From IMG/VR virus record IMGVR_UViG_2703718852_000002, positions 1-20,477 of that record: 20,477 bases of DNA. The stretch is one strand, 5' to 3'. The DNA comes from a virus (Duplodnaviria; Heunggongvirae; Uroviricota; Caudoviricetes). A program made the position numbers and the translations under genes. The stretch's first letter is position 1. Each line of letters begins with the position of its first letter. Shown one piece after another: positions 1,242 through 17,403 of this stretch. The notes under the pieces are model-generated. The model was not told the origin of the DNA and did not search any database. It saw only the letters and a list, made by a program, of their open reading frames with translations.

Positions 1242-1433
1242 TTATCGTGAGTTTTTAGTACAGATTTTTTTGGATTTACTAATAGTTCCATCATTGCAAA
1301 CGAATTTGCCATCAGAGGTACAGTGAGAAACACCTCCCTTTTTCCCTGAGCAGGGATAATTTCTAGCATAGGTAGCTAGTGGGTTTAATAACAAAGAACA
1401 TGACAAAACCACAAAAAATACCTTACCAAGCAT
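1242..1433 (-). CDS. Small secreted Cys-rich protein (63 aa), moron between cI and int
   Basis: Strong RBS (GGGAGGAAATT-ATG on the minus strand). Signal-peptide-like N-terminus [23 protein letters not shown], then a ~40-aa Lys/Gly-rich segment with 4 Cys. AT-rich. It starts 15 nt after the cI stop, on the same strand as cI and int. Confidence 0.6.
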
Positions 1434-1448
1434 AATTTCCTCCCGGTA

Positions 1449-2018
1449 CTATTTAACATACTTGACTGTTAAACTTATAATTTTACCAATTATTTCAATG
1501 TCTTCTATCTTACATTCAAAGGCTCTGTTTCCACCCTCGACGAAGATTCTTCCACCGGGTAAACGAGTAATGTCACGGATCGTTATTTCGCCATCAATAC
1601 TTATTACCCATTTACCATCACGTATATCATCAAATTCCTTATCACAAATAAATTCAGAATTATTATCTGTGATTACAAAAAGATTCTTGAATGCCGACGG
1701 TAGAAATTCTCTATCGAAAATATAAAAACCGTCTTCACACAAGGCCCCATCAGATAATACATATTTAGCAACTTCCATAGTATTTGTATTACCTGAAGTT
1801 TGCTTTGAACCATGCCCGGTTGTGAGCCAATTAAGCGAGGTGCCTGTTTCAAGGGCGCACTGGATTACCCATTCTGCTGGGAATGAGTCACGCATGTAGC
1901 GTGTGGCGAGTGTACTTTTAGAGATTCCTAAATGATCGCACAACGCCTGTCGAGTCTTGAATCCATAAGCTTCTACCATGCGCTCTATGGCGCCTCGTCC
2001 GCCTTTCTCCAAATTCAT
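1449..2018 (-). CDS. cI: CI-type immunity repressor, phage 186-like (189 aa)
   Basis: N-terminal HTH (RQALCDHLGISKSTLATRYMR) and a C-terminal oligomerisation-type domain. ATG 2018 is preceded by GGAG (the GTG at 2024 is less likely). Divergent/convergent arrangement with apl-cII as in 186. Confidence 0.85.
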   Translation of the reverse strand: MNLEKGGRGAIERMVEAYGFKTRQALCDHLGISKSTLATRYMRDSFPAEWVIQCALETGTSLNWLTTGHGSKQTSGNTNTMEVAKYVLSDGALCEDGFYIFDREFLPSAFKNLFVITDNNSEFICDKEFDDIRDGKWVISIDGEITIRDITRLPGGRIFVEGGNRAFECKIEDIEIIGKIISLTVKYVK

Positions 2019-2042
2019 GGTCACTCCAAGTGAACTTTTATC

Positions 2043-2071
2043 TTGACGATTTCACCGTGCGATCGTATGTT
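2043..2071 (+). promoter_or_regulatory. Lytic early promoter candidate (pR/Pe-like): TTGACG-17 nt-TATGTT
   Basis: -35 at 2043-2048, -10 at 2066-2071, 17-nt spacer, about 70 nt upstream of apl. GATCGTAT / GATCCGTAT motifs at 2061 and 2095 and GTGAAC/GTTCAC at 2031/2078 flank it and could be operators. Confidence 0.5.
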
Positions 2072-2143
2072 TATGGTGTTCACAAAATACAAACGATCCG
2101 TATTCGTCCTGATTAATCATCATTAAACGAGGAATGTTGCATC

Positions 2144-2365
2144 ATGAGACCTAACATTTCAATCACTCTTACCACGCCTCATGTGACTATTGAACGCTAT
2201 AGCGAGCTGACAGGGCTATCCATCGATACCATCAATGACATGTTGGCTGATGGACGCCTTATCCGTCACCGTCTGCGCAAAGATAAAAAACGCGAAAAAG
2301 TGATGATCAACATAGCAGCAATGACCGTTGATGCGCTTTCAGAATGCAATCTAAACCTTAATTAG
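2144..2365 (+). CDS. apl: Apl/Cox-type small HTH excisionase / switch regulator (73 aa)
   Basis: First gene of the rightward early operon, facing cI. The HTH-like segment [21 protein letters not shown] resembles the P2 Cox architecture. Confidence 0.7.
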
Positions 2366-2397
2366 TTCGATTCTGAAATACATCAGAGGCATTGACC

Positions 2398-2907
2398 ATG
2401 TTTGATTACCAAGTTTCCAAACATCCACATTTTGATGAAGCCTGTCGTGCATTTGCACTGCGCCACAATCTGGTGCAACTGGCAGAACGTGCAGGCATGA
2501 ATGTGCAGATTCTGCGGAACAAGCTGAACCCAGCTCAGCCTCATTTATTAACCGCACCAGAAATCTGGCTGCTTACCGATCTGACTGAAGATTCAACGCT
2601 GGTAGATGGTTTTCTGGCACAGATTCATTGTCTGCCATGTGTACCGATTAATGAGGTGGCAAAAGAGAAACTGCCACATTACGTCATGAGTGCAACCGCA
2701 GAGATCGGGCGTGTTGCTGCAGGTGCGGTGTCTGGCGATGTAAAAACCTGTGCCGGTCGTCGTGATGCTATCAGCAGCATTAACTCTGTAACACGACTGA
2801 TGGCGCTGGCGGCTGTTTCATTGCAGGCCCGTTTACAGGCTAATCCTGCGATGGCGAGTGCAGTTGATACCGTGACTGGCCTCGGTGCTTCATTTGGTTT
2901 GCTGTGA
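2398..2907 (+). CDS. cII: CII-like lysogeny-establishment activator, phage 186 type (169 aa)
   Basis: [24 protein letters not shown]...NKLNPAQPH...[25 protein letters not shown] closely matches my recollection of 186 CII, including the 169-aa length. AGAGG RBS before ATG 2398. Confidence 0.85.
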
Positions 2908-2914
2908 GGTGCTT

Positions 2915-3115
2915 ATGCTGACGAAAGAACCATCATTTGCATCGCTGCTGGTTAAACAAAGCCCGGCAATGCATTACGGTCACGGCTGGATCATGGGGGA
3001 GGATGGTAAACGCTGGCATCCGTGCCGTTCACAAGATGAATTGCTGGCAGAACTATCTACGAAAAAACGGGGGAACAAATGGCTATTGAAGGCACTGCGG
3101 CGACTGTTCCATTAA
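2915..3115 (+). CDS. Small early-operon protein of unknown function (66 aa)
   Basis: ATG 2915 is preceded by GAGGTG, immediately after the cII stop. This is the position of the small fil/dhr-type genes of 186, but the sequence is not recognised with confidence. Confidence 0.5.
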   Translation: MLTKEPSFASLLVKQSPAMHYGHGWIMGEDGKRWHPCRSQDELLAELSTKKRGNKWLLKALRRLFH

Positions 3116-3420
3116 GCCCCGGTGAACGCCTGAATGGACTTAATCACATTGCGGAGTTAAGGGCGAAAGTTTTTGGCCTGAATATTGAGTCAGAGCTTGA
3201 GCGGTTTATTAAAGATATGCGTGATTCACGGGATATTAATAGCGAACAAAATAAACGGGCACTGGCTGCCATATTCTTTATGGCAAAAATTCCAGCTGAA
3301 CGTCATAGCATCAGCATTAATGAGCTGACCACTGACGAAAAGCGGGAGTTGATTAAAGCAATGAATCATTTTCGTGCAGTGGTGAGCTTATTTCCCAGAC
3401 GGCTAACCATGCCGAATTAA
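3079..3420 (+). CDS. Early-operon hypothetical protein (113 aa)
   Basis: ATG 3079 is preceded by GGGGGAA. It overlaps the previous ORF by 37 nt in another frame. No recognisable motif. Confidence 0.5.
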   Translation: MAIEGTAATVPLSPGERLNGLNHIAELRAKVFGLNIESELERFIKDMRDSRDINSEQNKRALAAIFFMAKIPAERHSISINELTTDEKRELIKAMNHFRAVVSLFPRRLTMPN

Positions 3421-3487
3421 CCAACTAATGAAATTAATGGCGTAAACCCGCCGGGCATCCCTTTATCTAAATTCAGGAGAATTGATT

Positions 3488-3721
3488 ATGCGTAATATTG
3501 AAACCCTCTCGACCAAAACCGGACCGGATGACGCAGGGCTTAATATTTTACTGACAGAGGCTCGTCTGGAAGAACGCCGGGCAAGGGCTGAAGCAATGGC
3601 AGCTCGCCTTGATAGCCTGGCGTGTCATATCACATCCCGCCAGCTAACCCACGTCGAAGCGGCAGAACTGCTTCGTGTGACTGCTGAAGCAATCCAGAAC
3701 GAAGCGCAGGAGATCCACTAA
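3488..3721 (+). CDS. Small helical early protein, DUF2732-like (77 aa)
   Basis: AGGAG lies 8 nt before ATG 3488. Sequence MRNIETL...LLTEARLEERRARAEAMAARLDSLA resembles the DUF2732 family common in P2-like early operons (from memory). Its stop overlaps the next start (TAATG). Confidence 0.55.
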   Translation: MRNIETLSTKTGPDDAGLNILLTEARLEERRARAEAMAARLDSLACHITSRQLTHVEAAELLRVTAEAIQNEAQEIH

Positions 3722-3948
3722 TGGCTGATGCAATGGATCTCGTACAGCAGCGCGTTGAAGAAGAACGCCAACGCCATATCCGTGCTGCCCGTGCCAAAAC
3801 GCCGGGCGTGTCCCGCGTGCTTTGCATTGAGTGTGAAGCGCCAATTCCGCCAGCACGCCGCCGTGCCATTCCGGGTGTGCAGCTTTGCATTACCTGTCAG
3901 GAAATCGCAGAGCTGAAAGGCAAACATTACAACGGAGGTGCTGTATGA
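3721..3948 (+). CDS. TraR/DksA-family C4 zinc-finger protein (75 aa)
   Basis: CIECEAPIPPARRRAIPGVQLCITCQ gives CxxC...CxxC. Typical P2-like early gene. Translationally coupled on both sides. Confidence 0.8.
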   Translation: MADAMDLVQQRVEEERQRHIRAARAKTPGVSRVLCIECEAPIPPARRRAIPGVQLCITCQEIAELKGKHYNGGAV

Positions 3949-4802
3949 GCACCATCCTGAAATGGGCGGGAAATAAAACTGCCATAATGTCCGAACTGAA
4001 AAAACATCTTCCTGCTGGCCCGCGACTGGTTGAACCTTTCGCGGGTTCCTGTGCTGTGATGATGGAGACGGATTATCCCAGCTATCTGGTTGCGGATATT
4101 AATCCTGATTTAATCAACCTCTATAAAAAGGTTGCCGCTGATTGTGAATCGTTTATATCTCGCGCCAGAGTTTTATTTGAGATCGCAAACAGGGAAGTGG
4201 CTTATTACAACATAAGGCAGGAGTTTAATTACTCAACTGAAATTACTGATTTCATGAAAGCGGTATATTTCCTGTATCTCAATCGTCACGGTTACCGTGG
4301 TTTATGTCGCTATAACAAGAGCGGGCATTTCAACATTCCCTACGGTAATTATAAAAATCCGTATTTCCCTGAAAAAGAAATTCGCGCATTTGCAGAAAAG
4401 GCCCAGCGAGCAACGTTTATCTGCGCCAGCTTTGATGAAACGCTGGCGATGTTGAAGGCGGGGGATGTGGTGTATTGCGATCCGCCGTATGACGGTACGT
4501 TTTCCGGCTATCACACTGACGGCTTCACTGAAGATGACCAGTATCACCTGGCATCTGTTCTTGAACATCGGTCATCAGAAGGACATCCGGTCATTGTTTC
4601 TAACAGTGACACATCCCTGATCCGTTCGCTGTATCGCAATTTTACTCACCACTACATCAAGGCAAAACGCAGCATCGGTGTGGCAGCTGGCGAGGGTAAA
4701 TCAGCAACAGAAATCATTGCTGTTTCCGGGCCGCGCTGCTGGGTGGGATTTGATTATTCGCGTGGCGTGGATAGTTCTGCCGTGTACGGAGTACGTGCAT
4801 GA
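3945..4802 (+). CDS. dam: DNA adenine methyltransferase, Dam/D12 class (285 aa)
   Basis: [20 protein letters not shown] (SAM-binding FxGxG) and YCDPPY catalytic motif. GGAGG before ATG 3945; ATGA overlaps with both neighbours. The track start at 3885 is an upstream extension. Confidence 0.9.
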
Positions 4803-7213
4803 GTCATGCCGATATGAACAACTGCTGCGGCTTTAACGAAGCTGCCGCATCGTTCTCATGGAACAGCTCGAAAAAGGCCATTAACCCTTATCTGGACCCG
4901 GTGGAAGTTGCGCCGGTTTCTACGCTTTCAAACCTGATCACTCTGTACGCTGCCGATAACGAGCAGGAACAGCTGCGCCGTGAGGCGCTGAGTGATCAGG
5001 TCTGGGAGCGTTATTTCTTTAATGAATCCCGTGATCCTGTCCAGCGCGAAATGGAACAGGATAAGCTCATTAGTCGGGCAAAGCTGGCGCATGAGCAGCA
5101 GCGTTTTAATCCGGATATGGTCATTCTGGCGGACGTCAACGCCCAGCCTTCCCATATCAGCAAGCCGCTGATGCAACGTATTGAATACTTCAGCAGCCTG
5201 GGCAGGCCAAAGGCTTATTCCCGCTATTTACGTGAGACGATTAAGCCATGTCTGGAACGACTGGAGCATGTACGCGACAGTCAGCTATCTGCATCTTTTC
5301 GCTTTATGGCAAGCCATGAAGGGCTGGACGGCCTGCTGATCCTGCCTGAAATGAGTCAGTTTCAGGTGAAACGCCTGTCCACCCTGGTAGCTGCGCATAT
5401 GAGTATGTGCCTTGATGCCGCTTGTGGCGATTTGTATGCCACCGATGACGTTAAGCCAGAAGAAATCCGCAATACATGGGAAAGGGTGGCAGCGGAAACC
5501 CTGCGTCTGGATGTCATCCCGCCTGCGTTTGAGCAACTCCGTCGGAAAAGAAACCGCCGTAAACCCGTGCCCTATGAACTCATTCCGGGTTCGCTGGCGC
5601 GTATGTTGTGCGCCGACTGGTGGTATCGGAAATTATGGAAGATGCGTTGCGAATGGCGGGAAGAGCAGTTGCGTGCTGTCTGCCTTGTCAGCAAAAAAGC
5701 ATCTCCCTATGTCAGCTATGAAGCCGTGTTGCATAAACGTGAGCAGCGCCGTAAGTCGCTGGAGTTTTTCCGTTCTCATGAACTGGTGAACGAAGACGGC
5801 GACACGCTGGACATGGAGGATGTGGTAAACGCCAGCAGCAGCAACCCTGCGCATCGCCGCAATGAGATGATGGCCTGTGTTAAAGGTCTGGAGCTTATCG
5901 CGGAAATGCGCGGTGACTGCGCCGTTTTCTACACCATCACCTGTCCGTCACGTTTCCATTCCACGCTAAATAACGGCAGGCCCAACCCGACCTGGACAAA
6001 TGCGACGGTAAGACAAAGCAGCGATTATCTGGTCGGTATGTTTGCTGCATTTCGTAAGGCGATGCACAAAGCCGGGTTGCGCTGGTATGGCGTGCGGGTG
6101 GCTGAGCCGCATCACGACGGCACAGTTCACTGGCACCTGTTGTGTTTCATGCGCAAAAAAGACCGCCGCGCCATTACAGCATTGTTGCGTAAGTTTGCTA
6201 TCCGTGAAGACCGCGAGGAGCTGGGCAATAACACGGGGCCGCGCTTTAAGTCTGAGCTGATTAACCCGCGCAAAGGAACGCCGACAAGCTACATAGCGAA
6301 ATACATCAGTAAGAACATTGACGGGCGTGGTCTGGCTGGCGAGATCAGCAAGGAAACGGGTAAATCTCTGCGTGATAACGCTGAATACGTGAATGCCTGG
6401 GCGTCTTTGCATCGTGTTCAGCAATTCCGCTTCTTTGGCATTCCGGGGCGTCAGGCTTACCGTGAACTGCGATTGCTGGCTGGTCAGGCGGCAAGGCAAA
6501 AGGGGGACAAAAAAGCAGGTGCGCCGGTACTGGATAACCCGCGCCTTGATGCCATCCTGGCTGCTGCTGATGCTGGTTGTTTTGCCACCTACATCATGAA
6601 GCAGGGCGGCGTACTGGTTCCCCGTAAATATCACCTCATCAGAACCGCTTATGAAATCAACGAAGAGCCGACCGCCTATGGCGATCACGGCATTCGTATT
6701 TATGGCATCTGGTCACCCATTGCAGAGGGCAAGATCTGCACTCATGCAGTGAAGTGGAAAATGGTTCGTAAAGCCGTTGACGTTCAGGAGGCGGCAGCCG
6801 ACCAGGGCGCTTGCGCCCCTTGGACTCGTGGCAATAACTGTCCCCTTGCTGAAAATTTGAACCAACAGGAGAAAGATAAATCAGCTGATGGGGACCCCAG
6901 AACGGACATTACCAGCATGGATGACAAGGAGTTGCACGATTACCTGCACAGTATGAGCAAAAAAGAGCGCCGGGAACTGGCAGCAAGGTTACGCCTGGTG
7001 AAACCGAAACGGCGTAAAGACTACAAACAGCGAATTACAGACCATCAGCGACTGCAGCTCGTGTATGAGCTGAAGTCCAGAGGATTTGATGGCAGCGAGA
7101 AAGAGGTCGATTTACTCCTTCGCGGAGGCAGTATTCCGTCAGGAGCAGGCCTGCGTATCTTCTATCGGAACCAGCGTTTGCAGGAAGATGATCAGTGGCG
7201 GAACCTGTATTAA
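4799..7213 (+). CDS. A: Replication initiation endonuclease gpA (rolling-circle Rep, 804 aa)
   Basis: HUH-type motif [10 protein letters not shown] and the two-tyrosine motif [10 protein letters not shown] typical of P2/186 A and phiX174-type initiators. Size and position match P2-family gene A. Confidence 0.9.
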
Positions 7214-7305
7214 TTACGCGGGTTAACAATTCGTGCTCTTAATAATACCAGGCATATCAGGCTGATGAACGTAAAAAAACGTTTTACATCAGTAAGATTA
7301 TTATA

Positions 7306-7340
7306 TACTGTAAATATAAACAGTGGTTATACATACAGTA
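7306..7340. promoter_or_regulatory. Tandem LexA (SOS) boxes overlapping a promoter-like TTTACA-15-TATACT
   Basis: 7306-7325 TACTGTAAATATAAACAGTG has CTG-N10-CAG and matches the consensus TACTGTATATATATACAGTA at 17 of 20. A second overlapping box at 7321-7340 (reverse strand TACTGTATGTATAACCACTG) matches 15 of 20, with CAC replacing CAG. Confidence 0.65.
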
Positions 7341-7366
7341 TTGCGTGTGGTGTCATAGGAGGAAAG

Positions 7367-7555
7367 ATGCAGGACTATTTTTTGGAGTCTTTGAAGCTCC
7401 AGCGCATTGATTTTTTTCTTAAGCTTGTAGCGGCTAGTGAGTGTAGTGATGAAGAGAAGGGGCTGGCTCTGCAGTGGGTTTCTGAATTGACTGATGAACT
7501 CATGGCAAAAATCAGAACCCACGAATACAACCGCTCAATGGATGTCATCAGCTGA
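7367..7555 (+). CDS. Small SOS-controlled protein, candidate Tum-like antirepressor (62 aa)
   Basis: AGGAGGAAAG-ATG at 7367, directly downstream of the LexA boxes. Same map position as the LexA-controlled tum of 186. Function is inferred from context only. Confidence 0.45.
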   Translation: MQDYFLESLKLQRIDFFLKLVAASECSDEEKGLALQWVSELTDELMAKIRTHEYNRSMDVIS

Positions 7556-7565
7556 GGTGACTTTT

Positions 7566-7799
7566 ATGCGCATTGAAATAATGATCGATAAAGAGCAGAA
7601 GATTAGCCAGTCTACCCTGGACGCCCTTGAATCCGAGCTTTACCGCAATCTGCGCCCCCTGTATCCCAAAACGGTAATTCGCATTCGCAAAGGTAGCTCT
7701 AACGGTGTGGAACTAACCGGACTGCAACTGGACGAAGAAAGAAAACAAGTGATGAAAATTATGCAGAAGGTGTGGGAAGACGACAGCTGGCTGCATTAA
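7566..7799 (+). CDS. DinI-like protein (77 aa)
   Basis: MRIEIMIDKEQ...LDALESELYRNL...QKVWEDDSWLH parallels E. coli DinI (MRIEVTI...IDALAGELSRR...QETWESADDW). GAGGTG RBS. Confidence 0.8.
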   Translation: MRIEIMIDKEQKISQSTLDALESELYRNLRPLYPKTVIRIRKGSSNGVELTGLQLDEERKQVMKIMQKVWEDDSWLH

Positions 7800-7934
7800 G
7801 AAACGTTGCTGGCGTCTGAACTTGCTTCTGGCGTCAGCAAGGTTGAACAACGAGCCCTTGCGAGGCGTTAGCTCTGTAGTGCATGTCTATGCCGCATGAG
7901 ATCGCATGATCGTTTGAGGATCGTTTTTGCTAAG

Positions 7935-7958
7935 GCCCGCCAGAACTGGCGGGCTTTT
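7935..7958 (+). terminator. Rho-independent terminator ending the early/SOS transcription unit
   Basis: GCCCGCCAG-AA-CTGGCGGGC hairpin followed by TTTT. Confidence 0.6.
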
Positions 7959-8003
7959 GCGTAGATCATGCAGGTGCATGAAAACCACTACATAAAGCGG
8001 GCA

Positions 8004-8022
8004 GGCGTGGCGGGGATACGAG
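8004..8022. other. cos: cos-like cohesive-end sequence GGCGTGGCGGGGATACGAG
   Basis: The first 13 nt are identical to the 186 cohesive end as I recall it (GGCGTGGCGGGGAAAGCAT; P2 is GGCGAGGCGGGGAAAGCAC). It lies between the replication module and the portal gene, as in P2/186. Confidence 0.5.
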
Positions 8023-8196
8023 CGCGCGCTGATAGGGTAATCGTCAAAACAGGCATCAGCTAGGTTGAGTTGTAGCGGTGCTTAAGTTTGCTCGTTGTTT
8101 GATAGAGCTTAATGTATGTAATTGCCTACAGCTGTGGTTATCTATTAACATGTAAGGATAAGGTCACTTGCTCGCTGCCATTAGAAGAGGAACTGG

Positions 8197-8667
8197 ATGT
8201 CTATCGAGGAAAAATTTTTTAGTGATATCGATTTAAAAGATCCGTTTTTTAACAGCCTAAGAGCTGATTATGAAGGATTTGATGTTTGGTTTCTCTCAAA
8301 AGGTAAAAATAAGGCGTTTGTATCACGTAATGAATTAGGTGAAATCGATGGTTTTCTCTATTTGAAAATAGAAGATGAAGAGTTGAGTGATATGACTCCA
8401 ACGTTTCCAAAGATGAAGCGAGTAAAGCTTGGCACATTTAAAATCGATGCTCATGGAACCAAACTTGGAGAGCGTTTTATTAGAATTATGTTTCAATTTG
8501 CTATGAGAAACAAACTAAAAGAAGTATATGTTACTATATTTGATAAGCATTCAGGATTAATTCGCTTATTAACTAAATATGGTTTTGTTTTAAAGGCGAG
8601 GAAAAATCTTTCTACGATTAATGGGCAAGAAGGTGTATACTTTAAAAACTTGGTATGGAAGGAGTAA
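8197..8667 (+). CDS. Cargo gene 1: GNAT-fold acetyltransferase-like protein (156 aa)
   Basis: AGAGGA RBS. The C-terminal half, FKIDAHGTKLGERFIRIMFQFAMRNKLKEVYVTIFDKHSGLIRLLTKYGFVLKA, fits the GNAT beta4-alpha3 / ...YxKxGF pattern. The existence of the ORF is more certain than its function. AT-rich. Confidence 0.6.
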   Translation: MSIEEKFFSDIDLKDPFFNSLRADYEGFDVWFLSKGKNKAFVSRNELGEIDGFLYLKIEDEELSDMTPTFPKMKRVKLGTFKIDAHGTKLGERFIRIMFQFAMRNKLKEVYVTIFDKHSGLIRLLTKYGFVLKARKNLSTINGQEGVYFKNLVWKE

Positions 8668-8670
8668 AAA

Positions 8671-9252
8671 ATGAGCTATGCTAATTATCCCTTAGTCAAA
8701 TTGCAGGGGAGAAATTATTTATTAAGTATTTATCCTGCATGGCATACACGTCTTTTCCCTGAGTCAAAACTCCACAATGAGAGTGCTGGTATCATCGCTG
8801 ATATATCACATACCAACAGTATTGAAAAAGTATACTTAACAAAAATGCATGGGGTAGCCAGCCTAAAGCCTGGAGATAATTTGCTTATTTATCGTACTTC
8901 AGATGGACAAGGTCCAGCTCGGTTTAGATCTGTTGCAACTTCAGTGTGTGTGGTTCAGGAAATTAAAGATATTCACGATTTCTTAACTTATGAGGAATTT
9001 AAGAATTACTGTGAACCTTATAGCGTTTTTGATGAAGATGAGTTACAGCTTCTATATATGAAAAAAAATTATCCGATAATTATACGGTTTACTTATAATT
9101 TCCCTTTGGAAAAAAGAGTTATTCGTGATGAAATCATGAATATTACAGGTTATACCAATAGTGATTATTGGGGTTTTTTACCACTAACTGATTCAGCATT
9201 TAAGCAGATTGTCTTACAGGGAGGTGTTGATGAAAGTTTTATTATCGATTAA
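8671..9252 (+). CDS. Cargo gene 2: unknown 193-aa protein, possibly a divergent PUA-like/ASCH-type beta-barrel
   Basis: AAGGAG RBS, start 4 nt after the gene 1 stop. The core LKPGDNLLIYRTSDGQGPARFRSVATSVCVVQEIKD resembles the strand-turn-strand core of ASCH/EVE-type folds. No catalytic motif was recognised with confidence. Confidence 0.45.
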   Translation: MSYANYPLVKLQGRNYLLSIYPAWHTRLFPESKLHNESAGIIADISHTNSIEKVYLTKMHGVASLKPGDNLLIYRTSDGQGPARFRSVATSVCVVQEIKDIHDFLTYEEFKNYCEPYSVFDEDELQLLYMKKNYPIIIRFTYNFPLEKRVIRDEIMNITGYTNSDYWGFLPLTDSAFKQIVLQGGVDESFIID

Positions 9253-9601
9253 GCCAGAGTATGCAGAGAGTATACTTTCTGGTAAAAAAAAATATGAGTT
9301 TCGGAAAAATATTTTTAGAAATAAAAATGTTGATACGATAGTTATTTACGCAACGATGCCGGTTGGCAAAGTAATAGGTGAATTTAAAGTAGGAGATATT
9401 CTTGCTCTATCCCCTTCAGAATTGTGGGATAAAACGAAAGCTCATGCAGGAATTACACATTCTTTTTTTAAAGATTATTTCCACCAAAGAGAAAAGGCTT
9501 TTGCTATTTCCATCAAAAGCCCTAAAAGATATAAATTCCCTGTCGACTTAAATGAGTTGATTCCCGGCGGCGTCGCCCCACAGTCTTATCGTTATTTATA
9601 A
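9230..9601 (+). CDS. Cargo gene 3: ASCH-domain protein (123 aa)
   Basis: GGAGGTG RBS; ATG 9230 overlaps the end of gene 2 by 23 nt. MKVLLSIKPEYAESILSGKKKYEFRKNIFRNKNVDTIVIYATMPVGKVIGEFKVGDIL...AFAISIKSPKRYKFPVDL is the classic stand-alone ASCH (COG4933-type) pattern. Confidence 0.75.
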   Translation: MKVLLSIKPEYAESILSGKKKYEFRKNIFRNKNVDTIVIYATMPVGKVIGEFKVGDILALSPSELWDKTKAHAGITHSFFKDYFHQREKAFAISIKSPKRYKFPVDLNELIPGGVAPQSYRYL

Positions 9602-10141
9602 TGTTGTCTGGGCATGTTTCTTAACCATGCCCAGTTTTTCTAGGGCAATAGATAAATCGTTTGTTGTTGGGGATTCTAAGATAATTAATGGTACATTGAT
9701 TTTATTTGTAACATATTTTGCGTTTTCTCTTTCAGCTTCCATCAGCTTATTTAAATCATAAGTAATATCACTCCCATCTCGTTTCATTATTCGTTCTCTA
9801 ATTGTATCGGGAGACTCCTCAACTAAAATTACTCCATCTAGCCCCATTTCCTCAAATACTTCTTGCTTGAGAACTTCAATATCTCCATTTTTATTTATTA
9901 AGGTAAAATGACCATCCAATAAAATATTGGATACCTTTAACTTTAATGCATTAAGTGCCGTAAGTAATATTGATTGGTTTTTATCAGGTGTGGCCGTTAA
10001 CTTACTGTTATCAAATTTAATATTAGAATTATTTTTTATAAGTTCGCTTGCGCTTACATGAGTTACCCCGAAATCATCTTTTGCAAATGAACACAAGTAA
10101 CCTTTGCCTACACCATGAACACCTGCTATGAAAATTAACAT
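9596..10141 (-). CDS. Cargo gene 4: P-loop NMP/adenylate-kinase-like protein (181 aa)
   Basis: GGAGGT RBS. Walker A IAGVHGVGKGY (a GKG-type loop as in adenylate kinases) and LLDGHF (compare ILDGFP of Adk). Convergent with gene 3; the 3' ends overlap by 6 nt. Confidence 0.65.
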   Translation of the reverse strand: MLIFIAGVHGVGKGYLCSFAKDDFGVTHVSASELIKNNSNIKFDNSKLTATPDKNQSILLTALNALKLKVSNILLDGHFTLINKNGDIEVLKQEVFEEMGLDGVILVEESPDTIRERIMKRDGSDITYDLNKLMEAERENAKYVTNKINVPLIILESPTTNDLSIALEKLGMVKKHAQTTL

Positions 10142-10166
10142 AGTATTACCTCCGTTTATTTATTTA

Positions 10167-10175
10167 TGTTAGAAT
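10167..10175 (+). promoter_or_regulatory. Extended -10 promoter candidate (TGTTAGAAT) for the ASCH-2/AbiC-like operon
   Basis: TGn-TAGAAT at 10167-10175, with a weak -35 (TTACCT, 18-nt spacer). Predicted TSS ~10182, 25 nt before ATG 10207. Confidence 0.4.
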
Positions 10176-10189
10176 GTTATAGCCTTAGC

Positions 10190-10218
10190 ATAGTAGAGGA
10201 TAGAGCATGAAGTTTCAA
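10190..10218 (-). promoter_or_regulatory. Promoter candidate for the kinase-like gene: TTGAAA-17 nt-TACTAT (minus strand)
   Basis: -35 at 10218-10213 and -10 at 10195-10190 on the minus strand, exact 17-nt spacer. Predicted TSS ~10183, about 42 nt before ATG 10141. Confidence 0.45.
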
Positions 10219-10584
10219 GCTATATCGATTTTGACTCCAGCGGTAGAAAATATTATAAATGGTTCTAAATCTATCGAAATACGGTCGTGGTATCCTGAAA
10301 CGATACCATTAAAAAACGTCATTCTTGTTCAGAATGATAAATATCTTAAAAATCAAAGCGATATAGATCATGGGGTGGCTATGGCTATTGTCGATTTTGT
10401 TTCAGTTAGAAATTGGTCATATGAGGATTACTTAAAACAAAACCAAGAAACAACTCTTAATAAGCCTTGGTCTCCAGGTTATTATGTGTGGGAAATTAAA
10501 AATGTTAGAATTTTAAAAAAATCTATTCCTTGTGTGGCGAGGAAAGGTATTTATACAATAGATTTAAATATGGATTATATATAA
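10207..10584 (+). CDS. Cargo gene 5: ASCH-domain protein (125 aa)
   Basis: GAGGA RBS. MKFQAISILTPAVENIINGSKSIEIRSWYPETIPLKNVILVQ fits the common ASCH opening (AxSIxQPWAxxIxxGxKxIEIRSW...). Confidence 0.7.
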   Translation: MKFQAISILTPAVENIINGSKSIEIRSWYPETIPLKNVILVQNDKYLKNQSDIDHGVAMAIVDFVSVRNWSYEDYLKQNQETTLNKPWSPGYYVWEIKNVRILKKSIPCVARKGIYTIDLNMDYI

Positions 10585-10595
10585 GGTATTGTGAG

Positions 10596-11387
10596 ATGTG
10601 TGGTGCCATTCTTCGAAATATTAAGCGTTATGCCATTATTTATTCACTGTTGTTTTTGGCTTTTATTTTAATGCTGATAGTGTTTGTTAGCTATGTTTGT
10701 AAATTTGGAGTGTATTCATGGAGTGATTCCGTAGAGAAATGGGGACAGTTTGGCGATTATATTGGTGGTGTACTGAATCCTGCTCTGGCCTTTATCTCTA
10801 TCATGCTTGTTTGTTTCACACTATATTCTACATCTAGGCAGTCATCTATTCAGTCATTCGAGTCTGTGTTATTTGAGTTACTAAGATTTCATAAAGATAA
10901 CTTATCAGAAATTAAAACAACGTATTCAGATGGAAAAGTGTATGTAGGACGGGAGGCTCTTTCATTATACATTACCGAAGTGAAGTTTAACCTACTTAAT
11001 ATTGTGGATGATTCACTTCCTTTGGATGAAAGGTTAGAGCTTTCAGTTAATATGGTTTATCTGGAAGGTGACAATTTTGCGAATGTGGGACATTATTTCA
11101 GGAATATTTACCATATTTTTAAACATATCAATGACTCTAACTATTTGACTGAGAAAGAAAAAACCAAGTATGCGAAATTAGTTAGAGCACAAATATCTTC
11201 TATAGAATCTGGCGCGATGCTATTAAATGGTTTTTCATCGGTAGGAAAGCCTGCCAAGAAATTTATTGAAAAATATTCTCTCCTTCAGGGGTTTAGTTTA
11301 AGTAAGGAATTCAAGCAGCAATTACATGATTTAGGTGCCTTAAAATTATACGATGACGTTGCTTATGAGGATAAAAAAGGGCATTAA
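10596..11387 (+). CDS. Cargo gene 6: two-TM membrane protein, AbiC-like putative abortive-infection effector (263 aa)
   Basis: Starts 11 nt after gene 5. Two N-terminal hydrophobic helices (AIIYSLLFLAFILMLIVFVSYV and VLNPALAFISIMLVCFTLY) flank WGQFGDYIGGVLNP, the signature I associate with the Pfam 'putative phage abortive infection protein' (putAbiC) family. The C-terminal region is soluble and helical. Confidence 0.6.
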   Translation: MCGAILRNIKRYAIIYSLLFLAFILMLIVFVSYVCKFGVYSWSDSVEKWGQFGDYIGGVLNPALAFISIMLVCFTLYSTSRQSSIQSFESVLFELLRFHKDNLSEIKTTYSDGKVYVGREALSLYITEVKFNLLNIVDDSLPLDERLELSVNMVYLEGDNFANVGHYFRNIYHIFKHINDSNYLTEKEKTKYAKLVRAQISSIESGAMLLNGFSSVGKPAKKFIEKYSLLQGFSLSKEFKQQLHDLGALKLYDDVAYEDKKGH

Positions 11388-11394
11388 ATGCCCT
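11378..11394. terminator. Bidirectional hairpin AGGGCAT-TAA-ATGCCCT at the cargo/portal boundary
   Basis: Perfect 7-bp stem. On the minus strand it is followed by TTTTTTA, so it serves as a Q terminator. The stop codons of gene 6 (11385-11387) and Q (11384-11386, minus strand) both sit in or beside the loop. Confidence 0.55.
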
Positions 11395-12220
11395 TATCTT
11401 GGTCAAGGATGTAGTCATTAAATGACACAATATTTTGATTTATCCAGGTGTTTAGCTCAACTAGTCTTTTCTGCAAAGGAACCAACTCATTTCTGACAAA
11501 AACCTTCGCGGCTTTTTCCACATCCCCAAACCCTCCAACATTATTAGGCATAATCCCCATCATTTGCGGCGGCACGCGGTGCGCAGCCATCATGTCATCA
11601 CGGCTCACGTTCTTGATATTCAGAAACTCATCCTTCGCCGCAACTTCTGACAATGGGATAATCTGAAGCCCGTCCTTTTTGCCGTTAGGCGAGTACATAA
11701 ACAGGTTGCGGAAGTTGCCCGGACCTTTGGCGCTTTTCATCGCATTGCGGAGGTTGTTCACATCTTCCTGGTTCTGCGCGGCATCGGTCATGTACATGAT
11801 GAAGCCTGCATGACTGCCGTTAATGTAATACTTCCGGCGGAACAGCGTGGCGGACTCGTTGAGCAGGGCTGACGGAATGGCAGAAAGATAACCTGGCAGG
11901 CCGTAGATCTCCTGGTTGATGTCCGGTTCCATCAGATGAAAAATGCTGCCTTTCGTGAACTGATACGGCTGGGTTGTCATACCGTATTGCACAAACCAGT
12001 AGGTATCCAGGTCTAACCCGCGTCGGGTATATTTTGCCAGAGCAGGCTCAAGGGCGATAACTTCACCGAAGCGGTTCGTGCGTTTCTCCAGGTAGGCGTT
12101 ACCAAATACCAGATAGTCCTGCACAAAACGTGAAAAAGCCTGCTGGCTGAGCAGCGGGTGAGGGATGTAGGTACTGGTCAGAATGTTGCATTTTACTGCA
12201 ATCGGTGACCGGAAGCAGAG
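11384..12220 (-). pseudogene. Q: Portal protein gpQ, 5'-truncated (C-terminal ~275 codons retained)
   Basis: SPIAVKCNILTSTYIPHPLLSQQAFSRF...LNESATLFRRKYYINGSHAGFIMY...VFVRNELVPLQ matches P2 gpQ from about residue 70 onward. Upstream of ~12210 the minus-strand frame reads antisense to the J remnant (track ORF to 12337). Confidence 0.85.
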
Positions 12221-12439
12221 CCGGTAATGGCAGCGGCAAAAGCCAGTCTGCAGAAGTACATTGCCAGCCAGACGAGGCTTGGTCGGGATATTCGCCGTAG
12301 CGCCATCTTTGCTGCTCTGCATGTTGAGGGTGTTCAACGTGTGGAACTGGCTTCTCCGCTGGCGGATGTGGTCCTGAACAAAACACAGGCGGCATCATGT
12401 ACGCAGTGGAGCGTAACCAACGGAGGAACGGATGAATAG
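12209..12439 (+). pseudogene. J: Baseplate protein gpJ, 3' remnant (~75 codons)
   Basis: ...RLGRDIRRSAIFAALHVEGVQRVELASPLADVVL...GGTDE is a P2 gpJ C-terminus. An in-frame stop at 12206-12208 lies just upstream. The remnant is immediately followed by, and overlaps, gene I as in P2. Confidence 0.75.
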
Positions 12440-13037
12440 TCTGCTGCCACCGGGTTCAACTTCACTGGAGCGCCGACTGGCGCAAACCTGTAGCGGGATT
12501 TCTGATTTGCAGGTGCCGCTGCGTGACTTGTGGAATCCGGCTACCTGTCCGGTCAGCTTCCTGCCTTATCTCGCCTGGGCGTTCTCTGTGGATCGCTGGG
12601 ACGAGGGCTGGACAGAAAGCGTCAAACGCCAGGTAGTGAAGGATGCTTTTTATATTCATCAGCATAAAGGAACCACCAGTGCCGTGCGGCGGGTGGTGGA
12701 ACCGTTCGGATTCCTGATCCGCATTATTGAGTGGTGGCAGACCGGAGAAACACCGGGCACGTTTCGCCTGGATATCGGCGTGCAGGACCAGGGCATCACT
12801 GAAGATACCTATCTGGAACTTGAGCGACTGATAAGCGATGCCAAACCATGTAGCCGCCACATGATCGGCATGTCCATCAATCTGCAGACCAGCGGCCCGC
12901 ATTGGGTGGGAGCCGCCAGCTATCTTGGCGAAGAAATCACGATCTATCCGTATATCAACGAAACGATTATTTCCGGTGGCACCGCGCATGAAGGCGGGGC
13001 GGTCCATGTTATTGACACAATGAGAGTGAATCCATGA
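12432..13037 (+). CDS. I: Baseplate/tail protein gpI (201 aa)
   Basis: GGAGGA RBS. MNSLLPPGSTSLERRLAQ...FLPYLAWAFSVDRWDEGW is typical of P2 gpI. Coupled to H (ATGA). Confidence 0.85.
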   Translation: MNSLLPPGSTSLERRLAQTCSGISDLQVPLRDLWNPATCPVSFLPYLAWAFSVDRWDEGWTESVKRQVVKDAFYIHQHKGTTSAVRRVVEPFGFLIRIIEWWQTGETPGTFRLDIGVQDQGITEDTYLELERLISDAKPCSRHMIGMSINLQTSGPHWVGAASYLGEEITIYPYINETIISGGTAHEGGAVHVIDTMRVNP

Positions 13038-14977
13038 GCACAAAATTTTATACCCTGCTGACGGATATTGGCGCGGCGAAACTTGCCAGCGCCGCCGCGC
13101 TCGGTGTGCCGCTAAAAATTACCCATATGGCGGTGGGCGATGGCGGTGGAGTATTGCCAACGCCGGACGCAAAGCAGACGGCACTGGTAAATGAGAAACG
13201 CCGGGCTGCGCTGAATATGCTTTATATCGACCCGCAGAACAGCAGCCAGATTATTGCCGAACAGGTGATCCCTGAAAACGAGGGCGGTTGGTGGATACGT
13301 GAAGTGGGCTTGTTTGATGAGTCCGGGGCATTGATTGCCGTGGGCAACTGCCCGGAAAGCTATAAGCCGCAACTGGCTGAAGGTAGCGGGCGCACTCAGA
13401 CCGTGCGCATGGTGCTGATTACCAGCAGCACGGACAATATCACCCTGAAAATCGACCCTGCTGTAGTGCTGGCAACCCGCAAGTATGTGGATGACAAGGC
13501 ACTGGAGCTGAAGGTGTACGCGGATGATCAGATGGCAAAACATCTTGCCGCACCGGACCCGCATTCACAGTACGCGCCAAAAGCCAGCCCGACATTTACC
13601 GGAACCCCCAAAGCGCCAACGCCAGCGGCGGGGAATAATACCACGCAGGTTGCGACCACTGCGTTTGTACAGGCGGCACTGACGGCCCTTATTAATGGTG
13701 CGCCAGCCACGCTGGACACGCTGAAAGAAATAGCCGCAGCCATTAACAATGATCCGAATTTCAGTACCACCATTAACAATGCGCTGGCACTAAAAGCACC
13801 GTTGTCGAGTCCGGCACTCACCGGAACGCCAACAGCCCCCACGGCGGCGCAGTCGGTCAACAATACACAGATTGCCACTACGGCTTTTGTGAAATCGGCG
13901 ATTGCAGGAATGGTGGGTTCTGCACCTGCTGCACTGGATACACTGAACGAACTGGCGGCGGCACTGGGGAATGATCCGAACTTTGCCACGACAATGCTTA
14001 ATGCGCTGGCAGGTAAACAACCGCTGGACAATACGCTTACCAATTTGAGTGGAAAGGATGTGGCTGGTCTTCTCGCATACCTTCAATTGGGAGAAGCGGC
14101 AAAACGGGATGTCGGAACCGGTAATAATCAACTCCCGGACATGTCCGCATTTGGTATGTCGCGAAACGGACAAACTGCCTGGGATATTCTCCCAAATGGT
14201 ATGATTCGACAGGCTGGCACTGTGACACTGACACCAGTTGGTAACTTCAACGAAATTGTTCTTGGTGGAGTGACGTACTACACCCATTACTACAGGGTTA
14301 ATTTCCCCAGACAATTCCCAAATGCACAAATAGCAACGCTGGCAACACTAGCGAGCTCAGAGTTTTCGAAACAGACAACAATGGCCGGAAAATCACTGGC
14401 AACGCATCGCGATACTGATTCTGGCACTGACGTATCAAGAACGCGATTCACTGTGGCGTACGGCAGCAGTAACTCGAACCAGCAGCGCGTTGTCCTGGCT
14501 GGCTGGCGCACCACTGGCACTGCTGCGACGCGGGCTTGCTTCATCGGGCAACGCCGCAGGTTTACTTACTGCGCCGTTGTCGTCTTTGCGCCGCACGGCA
14601 TCACTGACGGGAAATGTCCTGAAAACTGTAGCAGGTGCGCCGGTTGCACTTTTGCGGTCTGGATTATCCGGTTTACGTGCTGTTGCTGTGATGTTTATGA
14701 ATCCTCTGGCGGTACTGCGCGGTGGACTGGCCGCCGCAGGCACGGTGCTGCGAGTACTGGCATCTGGTCCACTGGCGATGCTGCGCGTTGCCCTGTATGC
14801 CATATCTGGTCTGTTAGGTGCTCTGCTCAGTCCGATAGGTCTTGTGGTTACTGCACTGGCGGGCGTGGCGCTGGTTGTCTGGAAATACTGGCAACCCATC
14901 ACCGCATTTCTCGGTGGCGTGGTGGAAGGATTCAAAGCGGCGGCAGGTCCCATCAGTGCAGCGTTCGAACCGCTTAA
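13034..14977 (+). pseudogene. H: Tail fibre gpH, 3'-truncated and fused out of frame into the tape-measure gene
   Basis: P2 H-like N-terminus MSTKFYTLLTDIGAAKLASAAALGVPLKITHMAVGDGGG. Fibre-like sequence runs to ~14488 (...TVAYGSSNSNQQ). After that the frame gives a Cys/Arg/Gly-rich nonsense tail across T DNA until the stop at 14977. Confidence 0.8.
13631..14025 (+). repeat. Tandem ~75-aa repeat inside the tail fibre
   Basis: NNTTQVATTAFVQAALTALINGAPATLDTLKEIAAAINNDPNFSTTINNALALKAP is repeated as VNNTQIATTAFVKSAIAGMVGSAPAALDTLNELAAALGNDPNFATTMLNALAGKQP. This is a common phage fibre repeat. Confidence 0.8.
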
Positions 14978-15734
14978 GCCCGTGTTCCAGTGGATTGGCG
15001 ACAAAGTGCAGGCGCTGTGGGGCTGGTTTACTGATCTGCTGACGCCCGTTAAGTCGACCTCTGCCGAACTGCAGAGCGCAGCGGCAATGGGGCGGCGATT
15101 CGGGGAGGCACTGGCGGAAGGGCTGAATATGGTCATGCATCCGCTGGACTCCCTGAAATCCGGCGTTTCCTGGTTGCTGGAGAAGCTCGGCATTGTCAGT
15201 AAAGAGGCCGCAAAGGCAAAACTGCCGGAAAGCGTGACGCGTCAGCAACCTGCGACGGTGAATGCAGACGGTAAAGTGATGATGCCATCGGGTGGTTTTC
15301 CATCATGGGGATATGGCTTTGCGGGGATGTATGACAGCGGCGGGTATATCCCGCGCGGGCAGTTTGGCATCGTCGGTGAAAACGGGCCGGAAATTGTTAA
15401 CGGCCCGGCAAATGTGACCAGCCGGAGAAATACAGCTGCACTGGCTGCCGTTGTTGCCGGAATGATGGGCGTTGCTGCCGCGCCAGCAGAGCTTCCACCG
15501 TTGCACCCTTTGGCACTTCCCGCGAAAGGTGGAGAAGCAATTGTGAGTCGCGCAGCCACTGTGCCGCTCGTTCAACGGATTGAGGCACCGACGCAGATCA
15601 TCATTCAGACGCAGCCAGGACAAAGTGCGCAGGATATTGCGCGGGAGGTGGCACGCCAGCTTGATGAACGTGAACGCAGGCTGAAGGCAAAAGCCAGGAG
15701 TAACTACAGCGATCAGGGGGGATACGACGCATGA
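14490..15734 (+). pseudogene. T: Tape-measure protein gpT, 5'-truncated (C-terminal ~414 codons)
   Basis: Ala/Gly/Leu-rich periodic PLALLRRGL / PVALLRSGL / PLAVLRGGL units, then ...GGYIPRGQFGIVGENGPEIV..., typical of P2 gpT. There is no credible start (TTG only). Followed by U with an ATGA overlap. Confidence 0.8.
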
Positions 15735-16216
15735 TGATGGTGCTGGGATTGTACGTGTTTATGCTGCGCACCGTTCCGTATCAGGAACTGCAGTATCAAC
15801 GCAGCTGGCGACATGCGGCAAACAGTCGGGTAAACCGACGTCCGTCCACGCAGTTTCTGGGACCGGAAAACGACATGCTGACGCTTTCCGGTGTTCTTAT
15901 GCCGGAAATAACAGGCGGCAGGCTGTCGTTGCTGGCACTGGAGCAGATGGCAGAACAGGGGAAAGCATGGCCCCTGATTGAAGGCAGCGGCACGATTTAC
16001 GGCATGTATGTGATTGAGGGACTGAATCAGACTAAAACGGAGTTTTTCCGCGACGGTATGCCGCGCCGGATTGAGTTCACCCTGTCGCTCAAACGAGTGG
16101 ATGAATCCCTGTCCGATATGTTCGGTGATCTCAGTGCGCAACTGAATAATCTGCAGGACACGGCAACGTCTGCCTTAAGCGATATCAGTAAAACGGTGGG
16201 AGGGCTGCTGTCGTGA
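15731..16216 (+). CDS. U: Tail protein gpU (161 aa)
   Basis: MMMVLGLYVFMLRTVPYQELQYQRSWRHAANSRV...GKAWPLIEGSGTIYGMYVIE closely parallels P2 gpU. Confidence 0.9.
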   Translation: MMMVLGLYVFMLRTVPYQELQYQRSWRHAANSRVNRRPSTQFLGPENDMLTLSGVLMPEITGGRLSLLALEQMAEQGKAWPLIEGSGTIYGMYVIEGLNQTKTEFFRDGMPRRIEFTLSLKRVDESLSDMFGDLSAQLNNLQDTATSALSDISKTVGGLLS

Positions 16217-17313
16217 ATTTCAGCTCTGAACTGCTTAACAAAGGCAACAAAACTCCCGCATTCAGCATCAGTATTGAGGGCAGGGATATCACCACTGTGC
16301 TGGATAACCGCCTGATGAGTTTGACGCTGACGGATAACCGGGGCTTTGAAGCGGACCAGCTTGATCTGGAGCTGGATGACGCTGACGGAAAAATCGTGCT
16401 GCCGCGCCGTGGTGCGGTTATTACGCTGGCGCTGGGCTGGAAGGGGCAGCCGCTTTTCCCGAAAGGGGCATTCACAGTGGACGAGATTGAACACACTGGC
16501 GCACCGGACCGCCTGACTATCCGGGCGCGAAGTGCTGATTTTCGGGAAACGCTGAATACCCGCCGTGAAAAATCGTGGCATAAGACCACCGTCGGGGAAG
16601 TGGTGAAGGAAATAGCCGCGCGGCACAAGCTGAAGATGGCACTGGGTAAAGACCTGTCGGATAAGCCCGTGGAGCATATAGACCAGACTAATGAGAGTGA
16701 CGGCAGTTTTCTGATGCGGCTGGCGCGACAGTACGGTGCCATCGCGTCGGTGAAAAATGGCAATCTGTTATTCATCCGGCAGGGGCAGGGCAAAAGCGCC
16801 ACTGGTAAACCTCTGCCAGTGATCACTATCACACGCAAGGACGGCGACAGTCACCGATTTACCCTGGCAGATCGCGGAGCCTACACGGGCGTAATTGCCA
16901 GCTGGTTGCATACCCGCGAACCTGCGAAGAAAGAAAGCACCACGGTGAAGCGTAAGCGCAGAACTAAGAAGCAGAAGAAAGAGCCAGAAGCGAAGCAGGG
17001 CGATTACCTGGTGGGTACGGATGAAAACGTGCTGGTACTTAATCGCACTTATGCCAACCGGAGCAACGCCGAACGAGCGGCGAAAATGCAGTGGGAACGC
17101 CTGCAACGCGGCGTTGCGTCATTTTCGCTACAACTGGCAGAAGGGCGGGCAGATCTCTACACGGAAATGCCTGTGAAGGTCAGTGGTTTTAAACAGCCGA
17201 TAGATGATGCGGAATGGACCATTACGACTCTGACACATACTGTCAGCCCGGATAATGGTTTTACGACCAGTCTGGAGCTTGAAGTGAGGATTGATGATTT
17301 CGAAATGGAATGA
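16213..17313 (+). CDS. D: Tail/late-control protein gpD (366 aa)
   Basis: ...LTLTDNRGFEADQLDLELDDADG...RARSADFRETLNTRREKSWH...VKVSGFKQPIDDAEWTITTLTH parallels P2 gpD. GTG start overlaps the U stop. Confidence 0.9.
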   Translation: MNFSSELLNKGNKTPAFSISIEGRDITTVLDNRLMSLTLTDNRGFEADQLDLELDDADGKIVLPRRGAVITLALGWKGQPLFPKGAFTVDEIEHTGAPDRLTIRARSADFRETLNTRREKSWHKTTVGEVVKEIAARHKLKMALGKDLSDKPVEHIDQTNESDGSFLMRLARQYGAIASVKNGNLLFIRQGQGKSATGKPLPVITITRKDGDSHRFTLADRGAYTGVIASWLHTREPAKKESTTVKRKRRTKKQKKEPEAKQGDYLVGTDENVLVLNRTYANRSNAERAAKMQWERLQRGVASFSLQLAEGRADLYTEMPVKVSGFKQPIDDAEWTITTLTHTVSPDNGFTTSLELEVRIDDFEME

Positions 17314-17338
17314 TTCTTCGCAATGGAGAACTTTTAAG

Positions 17339-17366: not shown

Positions 17367-17403
17367 TATTGTGAATTTAGCAAAAATGGGGAGAGCTCGA
17401 AAA

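Follow-up and report, generated by a model that had tools for sequence, protein, structure and literature searches.

The question raised by this locus is whether three tightly spaced genes at positions 8197–9601 of a 20,477-nucleotide (nt) stretch of viral DNA (IMG/VR virus record IMGVR_UViG_2703718852_000002, Caudoviricetes; the whole stretch is called the window below) form a new three-component system, as an earlier note on this DNA had proposed, or a variant of one already recorded. The evidence indicates that the locus is probably a lineage-specific split form of the GNAT-EVE plus ASCH module and a putative toxin-antitoxin or anti-phage cargo of a P2-like prophage. The three open reading frames are real and lie coupled on the same strand as the note described, in an arrangement far from chance expectation. 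The genes, designated g1 to g3, and their junctions are as follows.

8197–8667, plus strand: g1, GNAT-fold acetyltransferase of 156 amino acids, TAA stop at 8665–8667.
8671–9252, plus strand: g2, EVE/PUA-like beta-barrel protein of 193 amino acids, ATG at 8671.
9230–9601, plus strand: g3, ASCH-domain protein of 123 amino acids with an isoelectric point of 9.7, ATG at 9230.
8657–8673, plus strand: g1/g2 junction, with the Shine-Dalgarno (SD) sequence GGAAGGAG at 8657–8664 within the end of g1, then the TAA stop, a 3-nt spacer (AAA) and the g2 ATG.
9220–9252, plus strand: dual-coding g2/g3 junction, with the SD sequence GGAGGTG embedded in g2 at 9220–9226, the g3 ATG at 9230 and a 23-nt out-of-frame overlap, ATGAAAGTTTTATTATCGATTAA.

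When compared with the PADLOC profile PDC-M11A (PDLC04419), g1 aligned to model positions 11–160 of 357 (E 1e-58) and g2 to positions 166–357 (E 5.9e-69), and g3 matched PDC-M11B (E 1.7e-49). Since the N-terminal half of PDC-M11A corresponds to g1 and the C-terminal half to g2, the locus represents the known two-component GNAT-EVE plus ASCH module with its first gene split rather than a new three-component system, and the 193-amino acid protein that had been set down as an unknown third component is the EVE/PUA-like C-terminal domain of the protein begun by g1. The same correspondence is found in PHROGs, where phrog_6345 (352 amino acids) spans g1 and g2, and phrog_13728 and phrog_30943 each represent one stand-alone half. 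The translation of g1, stop and g2 is colinear with the fused orf12 product of SopEPhi and with the 357-amino acid “GevT toxin” of PhiR47_2; since the parts follow in colinear order and none is lacking, the locus is read as a split variant, g1 and g2 being, on the evidence of sequence, two halves of what is normally one protein of about 350 amino acids. In all tested respects save the fusion of these first two domains the locus is thus assigned to the GNAT-EVE/ASCH family.

Bell, Wolf and Koonin (2020; PMC7641849) presented the module itself as a fusion of GNAT and EVE, in many cases preceded by an N-terminal PIN domain, with an ASCH gene nearly always alongside and an AAA_17 ATPase gene frequently so. 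The module was predicted there to be a toxin-antitoxin system, with the PIN-less form common in beta- and gammaproteobacterial prophages, and none of the modules had been experimentally characterised as of 2020; on the GNAT-EVE/ASCH module the same paper cites Iyer et al. 2013. The earlier note's suggestion of a toxin and an antidote agrees, as a prediction, with that paper and with the names chosen by the depositors of the lambdoid PhiR47_2 (GenBank PV340567.1), in which the GevT gene is followed by an overlapping gene for a 125-amino acid “GevA antitoxin”. The protein families by profile, the gene order, the 23-nt overlap, the presence of AAA_17 and the gammaproteobacterial prophage habitat are all shared between the locus and the module variously recorded as (PIN)-GNAT-EVE plus ASCH, PDC-M11 and GevTA. 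It differs from PDC-M11/GevTA in that GNAT and EVE are separate polypeptides, and in having a second ASCH paralog, an AAA_17 gene on the opposite strand and no PIN domain. What is new is therefore the conserved split, a five-gene cassette and the overlap maintained across phyla; the system as such is already catalogued, predicted and apparently named.

The extent of the fused and split states was examined in a scan of one genome per species covering 289 relatives, from which the best 80 loci (given L numbers below) were analysed; one had no usable match, leaving 79. GNAT and EVE were fused in 71 of these, in proteins of about 332–439 amino acids (one 298-amino acid copy is cut by a contig end), and unfused in 8, comprising 5 clean Enterobacterales splits, 1 independent split and 2 degraded copies. 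An ASCH gene was present in 78, the sole exception again being cut by a contig end. When 1.84 billion cluster representatives (50% identity) were searched with a profile, 1104 matched at E<=1e-3 and 157 at E<=1e-30, mostly of about 350 amino acids with some of 500–630, and the split 193-amino acid form accounted for only one or two clusters. The GNAT-EVE/ASCH module is widespread, occurring in prophages from Proteobacteria to Firmicutes. DNA near-identical to the fused PhiR47_2 pair was found in 275 of 5426 complete Escherichia coli genomes (about 5%), including O157:H7, and the identical split cassette in 8 of the 5426; each exact protein of the window occurs on 1000 or more public contigs of E. 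coli, Klebsiella and Salmonella.

A split gene in a degraded prophage invites the explanation that a nonsense mutation has broken a fused GNAT-EVE gene, leaving g1 and/or g2 as pseudogene fragments. In keeping with this, g1 and g2 share one reading frame (…WKE*KMSY…), a point the earlier note had missed, with a single TAA between them; the carrier prophage is itself decayed, and broken copies are known (L026, L079 and a split AAA_17 gene in Proteus). However, the split is common to a whole clade across Enterobacterales and Aeromonas. Stand-alone g2 homologs of 193 amino acids were found in at least 13 genera (Serratia, Enterobacter, Rahnella, Pantoea, Cronobacter, Klebsiella, Gilliamella, Pectobacterium, Citrobacter, Aeromonas, Kosakonia, Erwinia and Proteus) and stand-alone g1 homologs of 153–157 amino acids have an equal genus spread, with identities of 55–90% for both. 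Gene lengths within the split clade are exact, at 154–156 amino acids for g1 and 192–193 for g2, each gene has its own SD sequence and ATG, and the junctions between them differ as listed here.

Window: spacer of 3 nt from g1 stop to g2 ATG, same frame.
Aeromonas: spacer of 5 nt, other frame.
Klebsiella oxytoca: spacer of 2 nt, other frame.
Proteus: spacer of 21 nt, same frame.

Between the window and 8 other split loci the proportion of synonymous differences (pS) is 0.66–0.93, which is saturated, and that of nonsynonymous differences (pN) is 0.14–0.31 in GNAT, EVE and ASCH; the split-clade proteins nevertheless remain 55–84% identical (55–79% for the two halves) and retain every family-invariant residue. 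Purifying selection acts on each half as a gene in its own right. A pseudogene formed by nonsense mutation was rejected because the split is conserved throughout the clade, its junctions vary and synonymous divergence is saturated, and decay of any kind is a most improbable account of the split. Recoding, by readthrough or frameshift, as a means of rebuilding the fused protein was also rejected, as the frame relations vary among members of the clade. The EVE domain gave a neighbour-joining tree, drawn without support values, in which all Enterobacterales, Aeromonas and Proteus split forms fall in one clade, and a Granulicella metagenome-assembled genome represents an independent split. The fused SopEPhi protein is nested within the split clade as sister to the split LSJC7 locus, which suggests re-fusion, or that split and fused forms can stand in for each other functionally.

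The two junctions differ in kind. That between g1 and g2 has the layout of termination-reinitiation coupling. At the g2/g3 junction, for which a TTG start of g3 at 9209 in the open-reading-frame listing was dropped in favour of ATG 9230, the overlap encodes …NESFIID* in one frame and MKVLLSIKP… in the other. The overlap between EVE stop and ASCH start is exactly 23 nt in 63 of the 79 loci and 29 nt in 9; the 23-nt form is common to split and fused relatives and is kept in Proteobacteria, Bacteroidota, Firmicutes, Acidobacteriota, Myxococcota, Cyanobacteria and others, making this a dual-coding junction of unusual stability across phyla. The earlier view of the genes as tightly coupled, co-conserved and carried as phage cargo is supported.

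Structure prediction and structural searches gave g1 a GNAT fold, as had been suspected from the sequence, with the N-alpha-acetyltransferases Ard1, Naa50, Naa60 and RimI as its best structural neighbours. The beta4-alpha3 loop, at the position of the Q/RxxGxG/A motif, reads H86-G-T-K-L-G91, in which G87, T88 and G91 are conserved in at least 95% of the family. A conserved tyrosine (Tyr128) lies three residues past Leu125. The earlier note had suggested that g1 could be a toxin of the TacT/AtaT type, acetylating the amino group of charged tRNA, with ASCH as a possible antidote and g2 as a further component. The GNAT fold accords with this, as does the fact that the best neighbours of g1 act, like TacT, on alpha-amino groups, and aminoacyl-tRNA has been considered a possible target of the family (PMC7641849). 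Yet no toxin family in NCBIfam or Pfam matched g1, no toxin-type GNAT was among its top structural matches, and no ribbon-helix-helix (RHH) or DUF1778 match, the antitoxin expected for such a toxin, was found in any cassette protein; g2, moreover, derives from the same ancestral protein as g1, of which it is the EVE half, and is not an extra component. TacT, AtaT, ItaT and KacT do resemble the locus in pairing a GNAT fold with a small coupled partner gene, but the partner here is ASCH instead of RHH/DUF1778, a PUA-like reader is attached, and specific sequence or structure affinity is lacking. The TacT/AtaT link was accordingly dropped, and this form of the toxin hypothesis is improbable.

For g2, sequence searches of the Protein Data Bank, profile searches included, gave no matches, and a fold search was needed. 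The AlphaFold2 model, with a predicted local distance difference test score (pLDDT) of 86.7, is a PUA-like barrel, and Foldseek matched it to ZmASCH (2.4e-6), to the EVE proteins 2gbs and 2eve, to THYN1 (3eop/5j3e) and to the McrB N-domain. The protein is thus a predicted reader of modified bases or a targeting domain. Within the EVE half, conservation is highest in the motif D43-x-S-H-T-N48-S49-I50-x-K52-x-Y54 (window 8770–8835, g2 residues about 30–55), which falls in the sole low-confidence stretch of the model, with pLDDT 52–59. In the light of the model these residues may form a flexible loop that becomes ordered upon binding of the GNAT half or of substrate.

That g3 is an ASCH protein, as the earlier note had it, is confirmed by Pfam (E 5.3e-9) and by its nearest solved relative, ZmASCH (5gus, E 5.6e-12). 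Conservation across 83 family members reaches 95% or more at S6, K20, E23, R25, Y40, Q118 and S119. The GxKxxExR motif and Ser6 correspond to S7/K21/E24/R26, the pocket of EOLA1, which is an ASCH protein that according to a 2026 preprint deacetylates N4-acetylcytidine (ac4C); in YqfB, likewise an ASCH deacetylase of ac4C, the counterpart pocket is K21/T24/R26. In common with these ASCH amidohydrolases, g3 therefore has the fold, a pocket of Lys, Thr or Glu, and Arg, and an N-terminal Ser. It differs from YqfB in having Glu where YqfB has Thr, and in being encoded in a mobile conflict module. A Thr nucleophile of the YqfB type is absent from g3; the idea of an eraser was retained because EOLA1 shows that a Glu variant can be active, and the correspondence of S6/K20/E23/R25 to the EOLA1 pocket makes an acetyl-erasing antidote plausible. 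From ZmASCH, reported as a single-stranded RNA ribonuclease, g3 has kept the cleft residues Tyr47 (as Y40) and Gln127/Ser128 (as Q118/S119), and ZmASCH Lys53 aligns to Gly46.

These residues may also be read in terms of a conventional type II antitoxin, in which ASCH would neutralise the GNAT/EVE protein solely by binding, by competition for nucleic-acid sites or by control of expression, reversing no chemistry, and the pocket would be a base- or nucleic-acid-binding or ribonuclease site. The overlap kept across phyla with its embedded SD sequence suits a fixed stoichiometry, the helix-turn-helix (HTH)-ASCH fusions in related operons (PMC7641849) suggest DNA binding or autoregulation, g3 is basic, and the retained ZmASCH cleft residues fit such a site. 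On the other hand, the equivalents of the amidohydrolase triad and Ser are invariant in the g3 family, and ASCH is unlinked from GNAT-EVE in L052, L065 and L081, which would be odd for an obligate stoichiometric antitoxin. Neutralisation of this kind is a possible but rather unlikely alternative.

The boundaries 8197–9601 proved too narrow, since the three genes are accompanied by an AAA_17 gene and a second ASCH paralog. The conserved cassette of the split clade, GNAT > EVE > ASCH < AAA_17 > ASCH2, occupies 8197–10584 of the window, and it is followed by a further gene.

9596–10141, minus strand: AAA_17 P-loop protein resembling nucleoside monophosphate kinases, 181 amino acids, Pfam AAA_17 E 3e-18, with matches to adenylate and UMP-CMP kinases; convergent with g3.
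10207–10584, plus strand: second, divergent ASCH paralog, 125 amino acids, Pfam ASCH E 0.0017, under the family cut-off.
10596–11387, plus strand: putAbiC-like membrane protein, Pfam putAbiC E 1e-18, RefSeq start, 11 nt past the second ASCH gene.

The AAA_17 gene, an accessory part of the cassette, is a conserved neighbour of the three genes in Aeromonas, Klebsiella, Citrobacter and Serratia. It is present in 16 of the 79 loci, its operon position being variable. Elsewhere it lies just upstream of GNAT-EVE, downstream with a 4-nt overlap of the ASCH stop, or paired with ASCH on the opposite strand, and it is variously integrated in the operon in loci of other phyla (L052, L065 and L081; L043 and L089; L037, L048, L059 and L091); in L052, L065 and L081 the ASCH gene that is paired with it on the other strand is the one unlinked from GNAT-EVE. 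The second ASCH paralog shares S6, G18, K20, E23 and R25 with g3. It is limited to the split Enterobacterales/Aeromonas clade, where it has the same position in L004, L007, L010, L013, L015 and L016, and just 15 homolog clusters were found. A putAbiC gene also lies 3' of the cassette in P2-like prophages of Kosakonia (L013, 6917–7708) and Serratia (L016, 6957–7748); the gene is broken in Pantoea, absent in Citrobacter and LSJC7, and replaced in its slot by a SLATT_5 gene in Aeromonas. The putAbiC-like gene could be an independent abortive infection gene or a membrane effector tied to the second ASCH paralog. In Proteus mirabilis (L007/L008, 6947–7476) the cassette lies in a chromosomal island adjoining ahpCF with no recognisable prophage; the AAA_17 gene there is broken into pieces of 98 and 89 amino acids, and GNAT, EVE and both ASCH genes are intact.

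The window contains a complete but strongly deleted P2/186-like prophage, a remnant of about 17.5 kb at positions 1–17400, in the order integrase, CI, CII, Dam methylase, gpA, DinI-like, cargo, portal remnant, tail I/H, gpU and gpD, flanked by host ybjL-like and ybjM genes and the small RNA (sRNA) RybB. Terminase, capsid, lysis and most tail genes are gone. Positions 1–12208 are 99.4% identical to an intact prophage of E. coli MLI104K1, the match ending within the portal gene, with a deletion junction near 12208–12432; the remnant has lost its virion genes and kept its defence-type cargo. The cargo block at 8197–11387 has a GC content of 33%, with flanks of 48–54%. The E. coli cassette lies between DinI and portal Q, and in Kosakonia, Citrobacter, Serratia, Pantoea and LSJC7, for which the portal side was examined, it lies immediately upstream of the P2-type portal gene. 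In SopEPhi, a P2-like Salmonella phage, orf12 (L002, 3802–4911) is likewise positioned after a DinI-like gene. The cassette is thus cargo of the cos-adjacent hotspot of P2-like phages, the variable block adjoining portal Q, which Rousset et al. (2022; PMC9122126) established as a reservoir of anti-phage systems. The fused GevT/GevA pair of PhiR47_2 (L001, 1192–3378) is directly downstream of cI on the same strand, that is, in the slot of rexAB in lambda. The locus therefore resembles P2 hotspot cargo (tin, old) and the rexAB slot in being a small AT-rich block between conserved phage genes, with a fused homolog after cI; it differs from the described P2 hotspot systems in that the GNAT-EVE/ASCH module is unmentioned in the main text of PMC9122126. 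The AT-rich hotspot position, the neighbouring putAbiC gene and the fused homolog in the rexAB slot support a defence or toxin-antitoxin context.

Two further features bear on the expression and the limits of the prophage.

7929–7960, plus strand: GC-rich hairpin and T-run 3' of the DinI-like gene, an inverted repeat (I1) with 15-nt arms of 87% complementarity, followed by CTTTTGC.
17700–17778, minus strand: host sRNA RybB (Rfam, 105 bits), just past the right end of the prophage, between gpD and the ybjL-like gene.

The hairpin is likely the terminator of the upstream gpA-DinI unit, which implies a promoter belonging to the cassette somewhere in 7961–8196; a sigma-70 scan upstream of g1 gave no strong or convincing consensus site. 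An Rfam search of the cassette found no RNA family, RybB being the sole match in the window and outside the cassette.

The setting also bears on whether the module might instead serve the phage as a modification system with no toxin, in which GNAT-EVE would acetylate a base in DNA or RNA of phage or host as an epigenetic or anti-restriction mark, the ASCH proteins would read or edit it and AAA_17 would supply nucleotides or process them. The matches of the EVE-like fold to the modified-DNA readers THYN1, bound to 5-methylcytosine DNA, and McrB N-domain are consistent with this, and the prophage has a Dam-type methylase too. However, the module resides in a high-turnover cargo hotspot and the rexAB slot and not among replication or packaging genes, the depositors label the fused homolog toxin and antitoxin, and the module persists in a virion-incompetent prophage remnant and in the Proteus chromosomal island. 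This persistence argues for a benefit at the level of host or lysogen, and a modification system acting for the phage is doubtful.

Under the favoured interpretation, a split GNAT-EVE plus ASCH toxin-antitoxin or anti-phage module, g1 and g2 would reassemble non-covalently into the effector, and the EVE domain would direct the acetyltransferase to a base, possibly modified, in RNA or DNA. The resulting acetylation would poison either the cell or a phage infecting it, and the ASCH protein would render the effector harmless in the lysogen. Such a module might act in superinfection exclusion or abortive infection expressed by the lysogen and/or in prophage stabilisation. In the DarT/DarG system a nucleic-acid-modifying ADP-ribosyltransferase is encoded with an overlapping downstream macrodomain gene whose product binds the toxin and erases the modification. 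The folds are unrelated, ADP-ribosyltransferase and macrodomain in the one and GNAT/EVE and ASCH in the other, and the likeness lies in the proposed logic only, that of a transferase and an overlapping downstream gene for a possible binder and eraser. By this analogy ASCH may act at least in part as an eraser, an amidohydrolase taking off the acetyl mark; this is the preferred sub-mechanism, although it is less likely than not.

Several observations weigh against this interpretation. Toxicity, neutralisation and defence are drawn from a GenBank product name and from genomic context, and PADLOC lists PDC-M11 as a candidate system only. No experimental paper on GevT/GevA, GNAT-EVE or PDC-M11 was found in the searchable literature, where PDC-M11 appears as a passing PADLOC call in one strain-survey preprint and PhiR47-series names in an unrelated preprint. 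The catalytic Tyr142 of PaiA aligns to Leu125 of g1, so that the position of the canonical general-acid tyrosine is lost, and with this change and the loop HGTKLG catalytic competence is assumed. As regards erasure, Ser, Lys, Glu and Arg are also a generic ASCH signature and may serve base binding rather than hydrolysis, the ribonuclease activity reported for ZmASCH is not that of an amidohydrolase, and the tight coupling is no less suited to a stoichiometric binding antitoxin than to an enzyme.

A bolder extension is that the cassette is an immunity system that writes, reads and erases nucleobase acetylation, the GNAT subunit acetylating an exocyclic amine, for example cytosine N4, on nucleic acid of phage or host or in the nucleotide pool, EVE selecting the substrate or reading the mark, the two ASCH proteins acting as amidohydrolases that erase it on self and the AAA_17 protein recycling the nucleotides set free. 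This scheme is tentative and, taken as a whole, unlikely; if it were true, the natural split would mean that writer and reader are separable subunits, and the cassette would be the first acetylation-based counterpart, in phage defence, of reversible nucleic-acid modification of the DarTG type. The split clade is a natural domain-separation experiment, in which acetyltransferase and reader can be separately expressed, mutated and purified, and it permits a direct test of ASCH as an eraser. Should base acetylation not be the toxic or defensive act, the locus would be one further uncharacterised prophage toxin-antitoxin candidate; should it be, it would represent a new reversible chemistry in bacterial immunity and give a defined role to ASCH and EVE domains.

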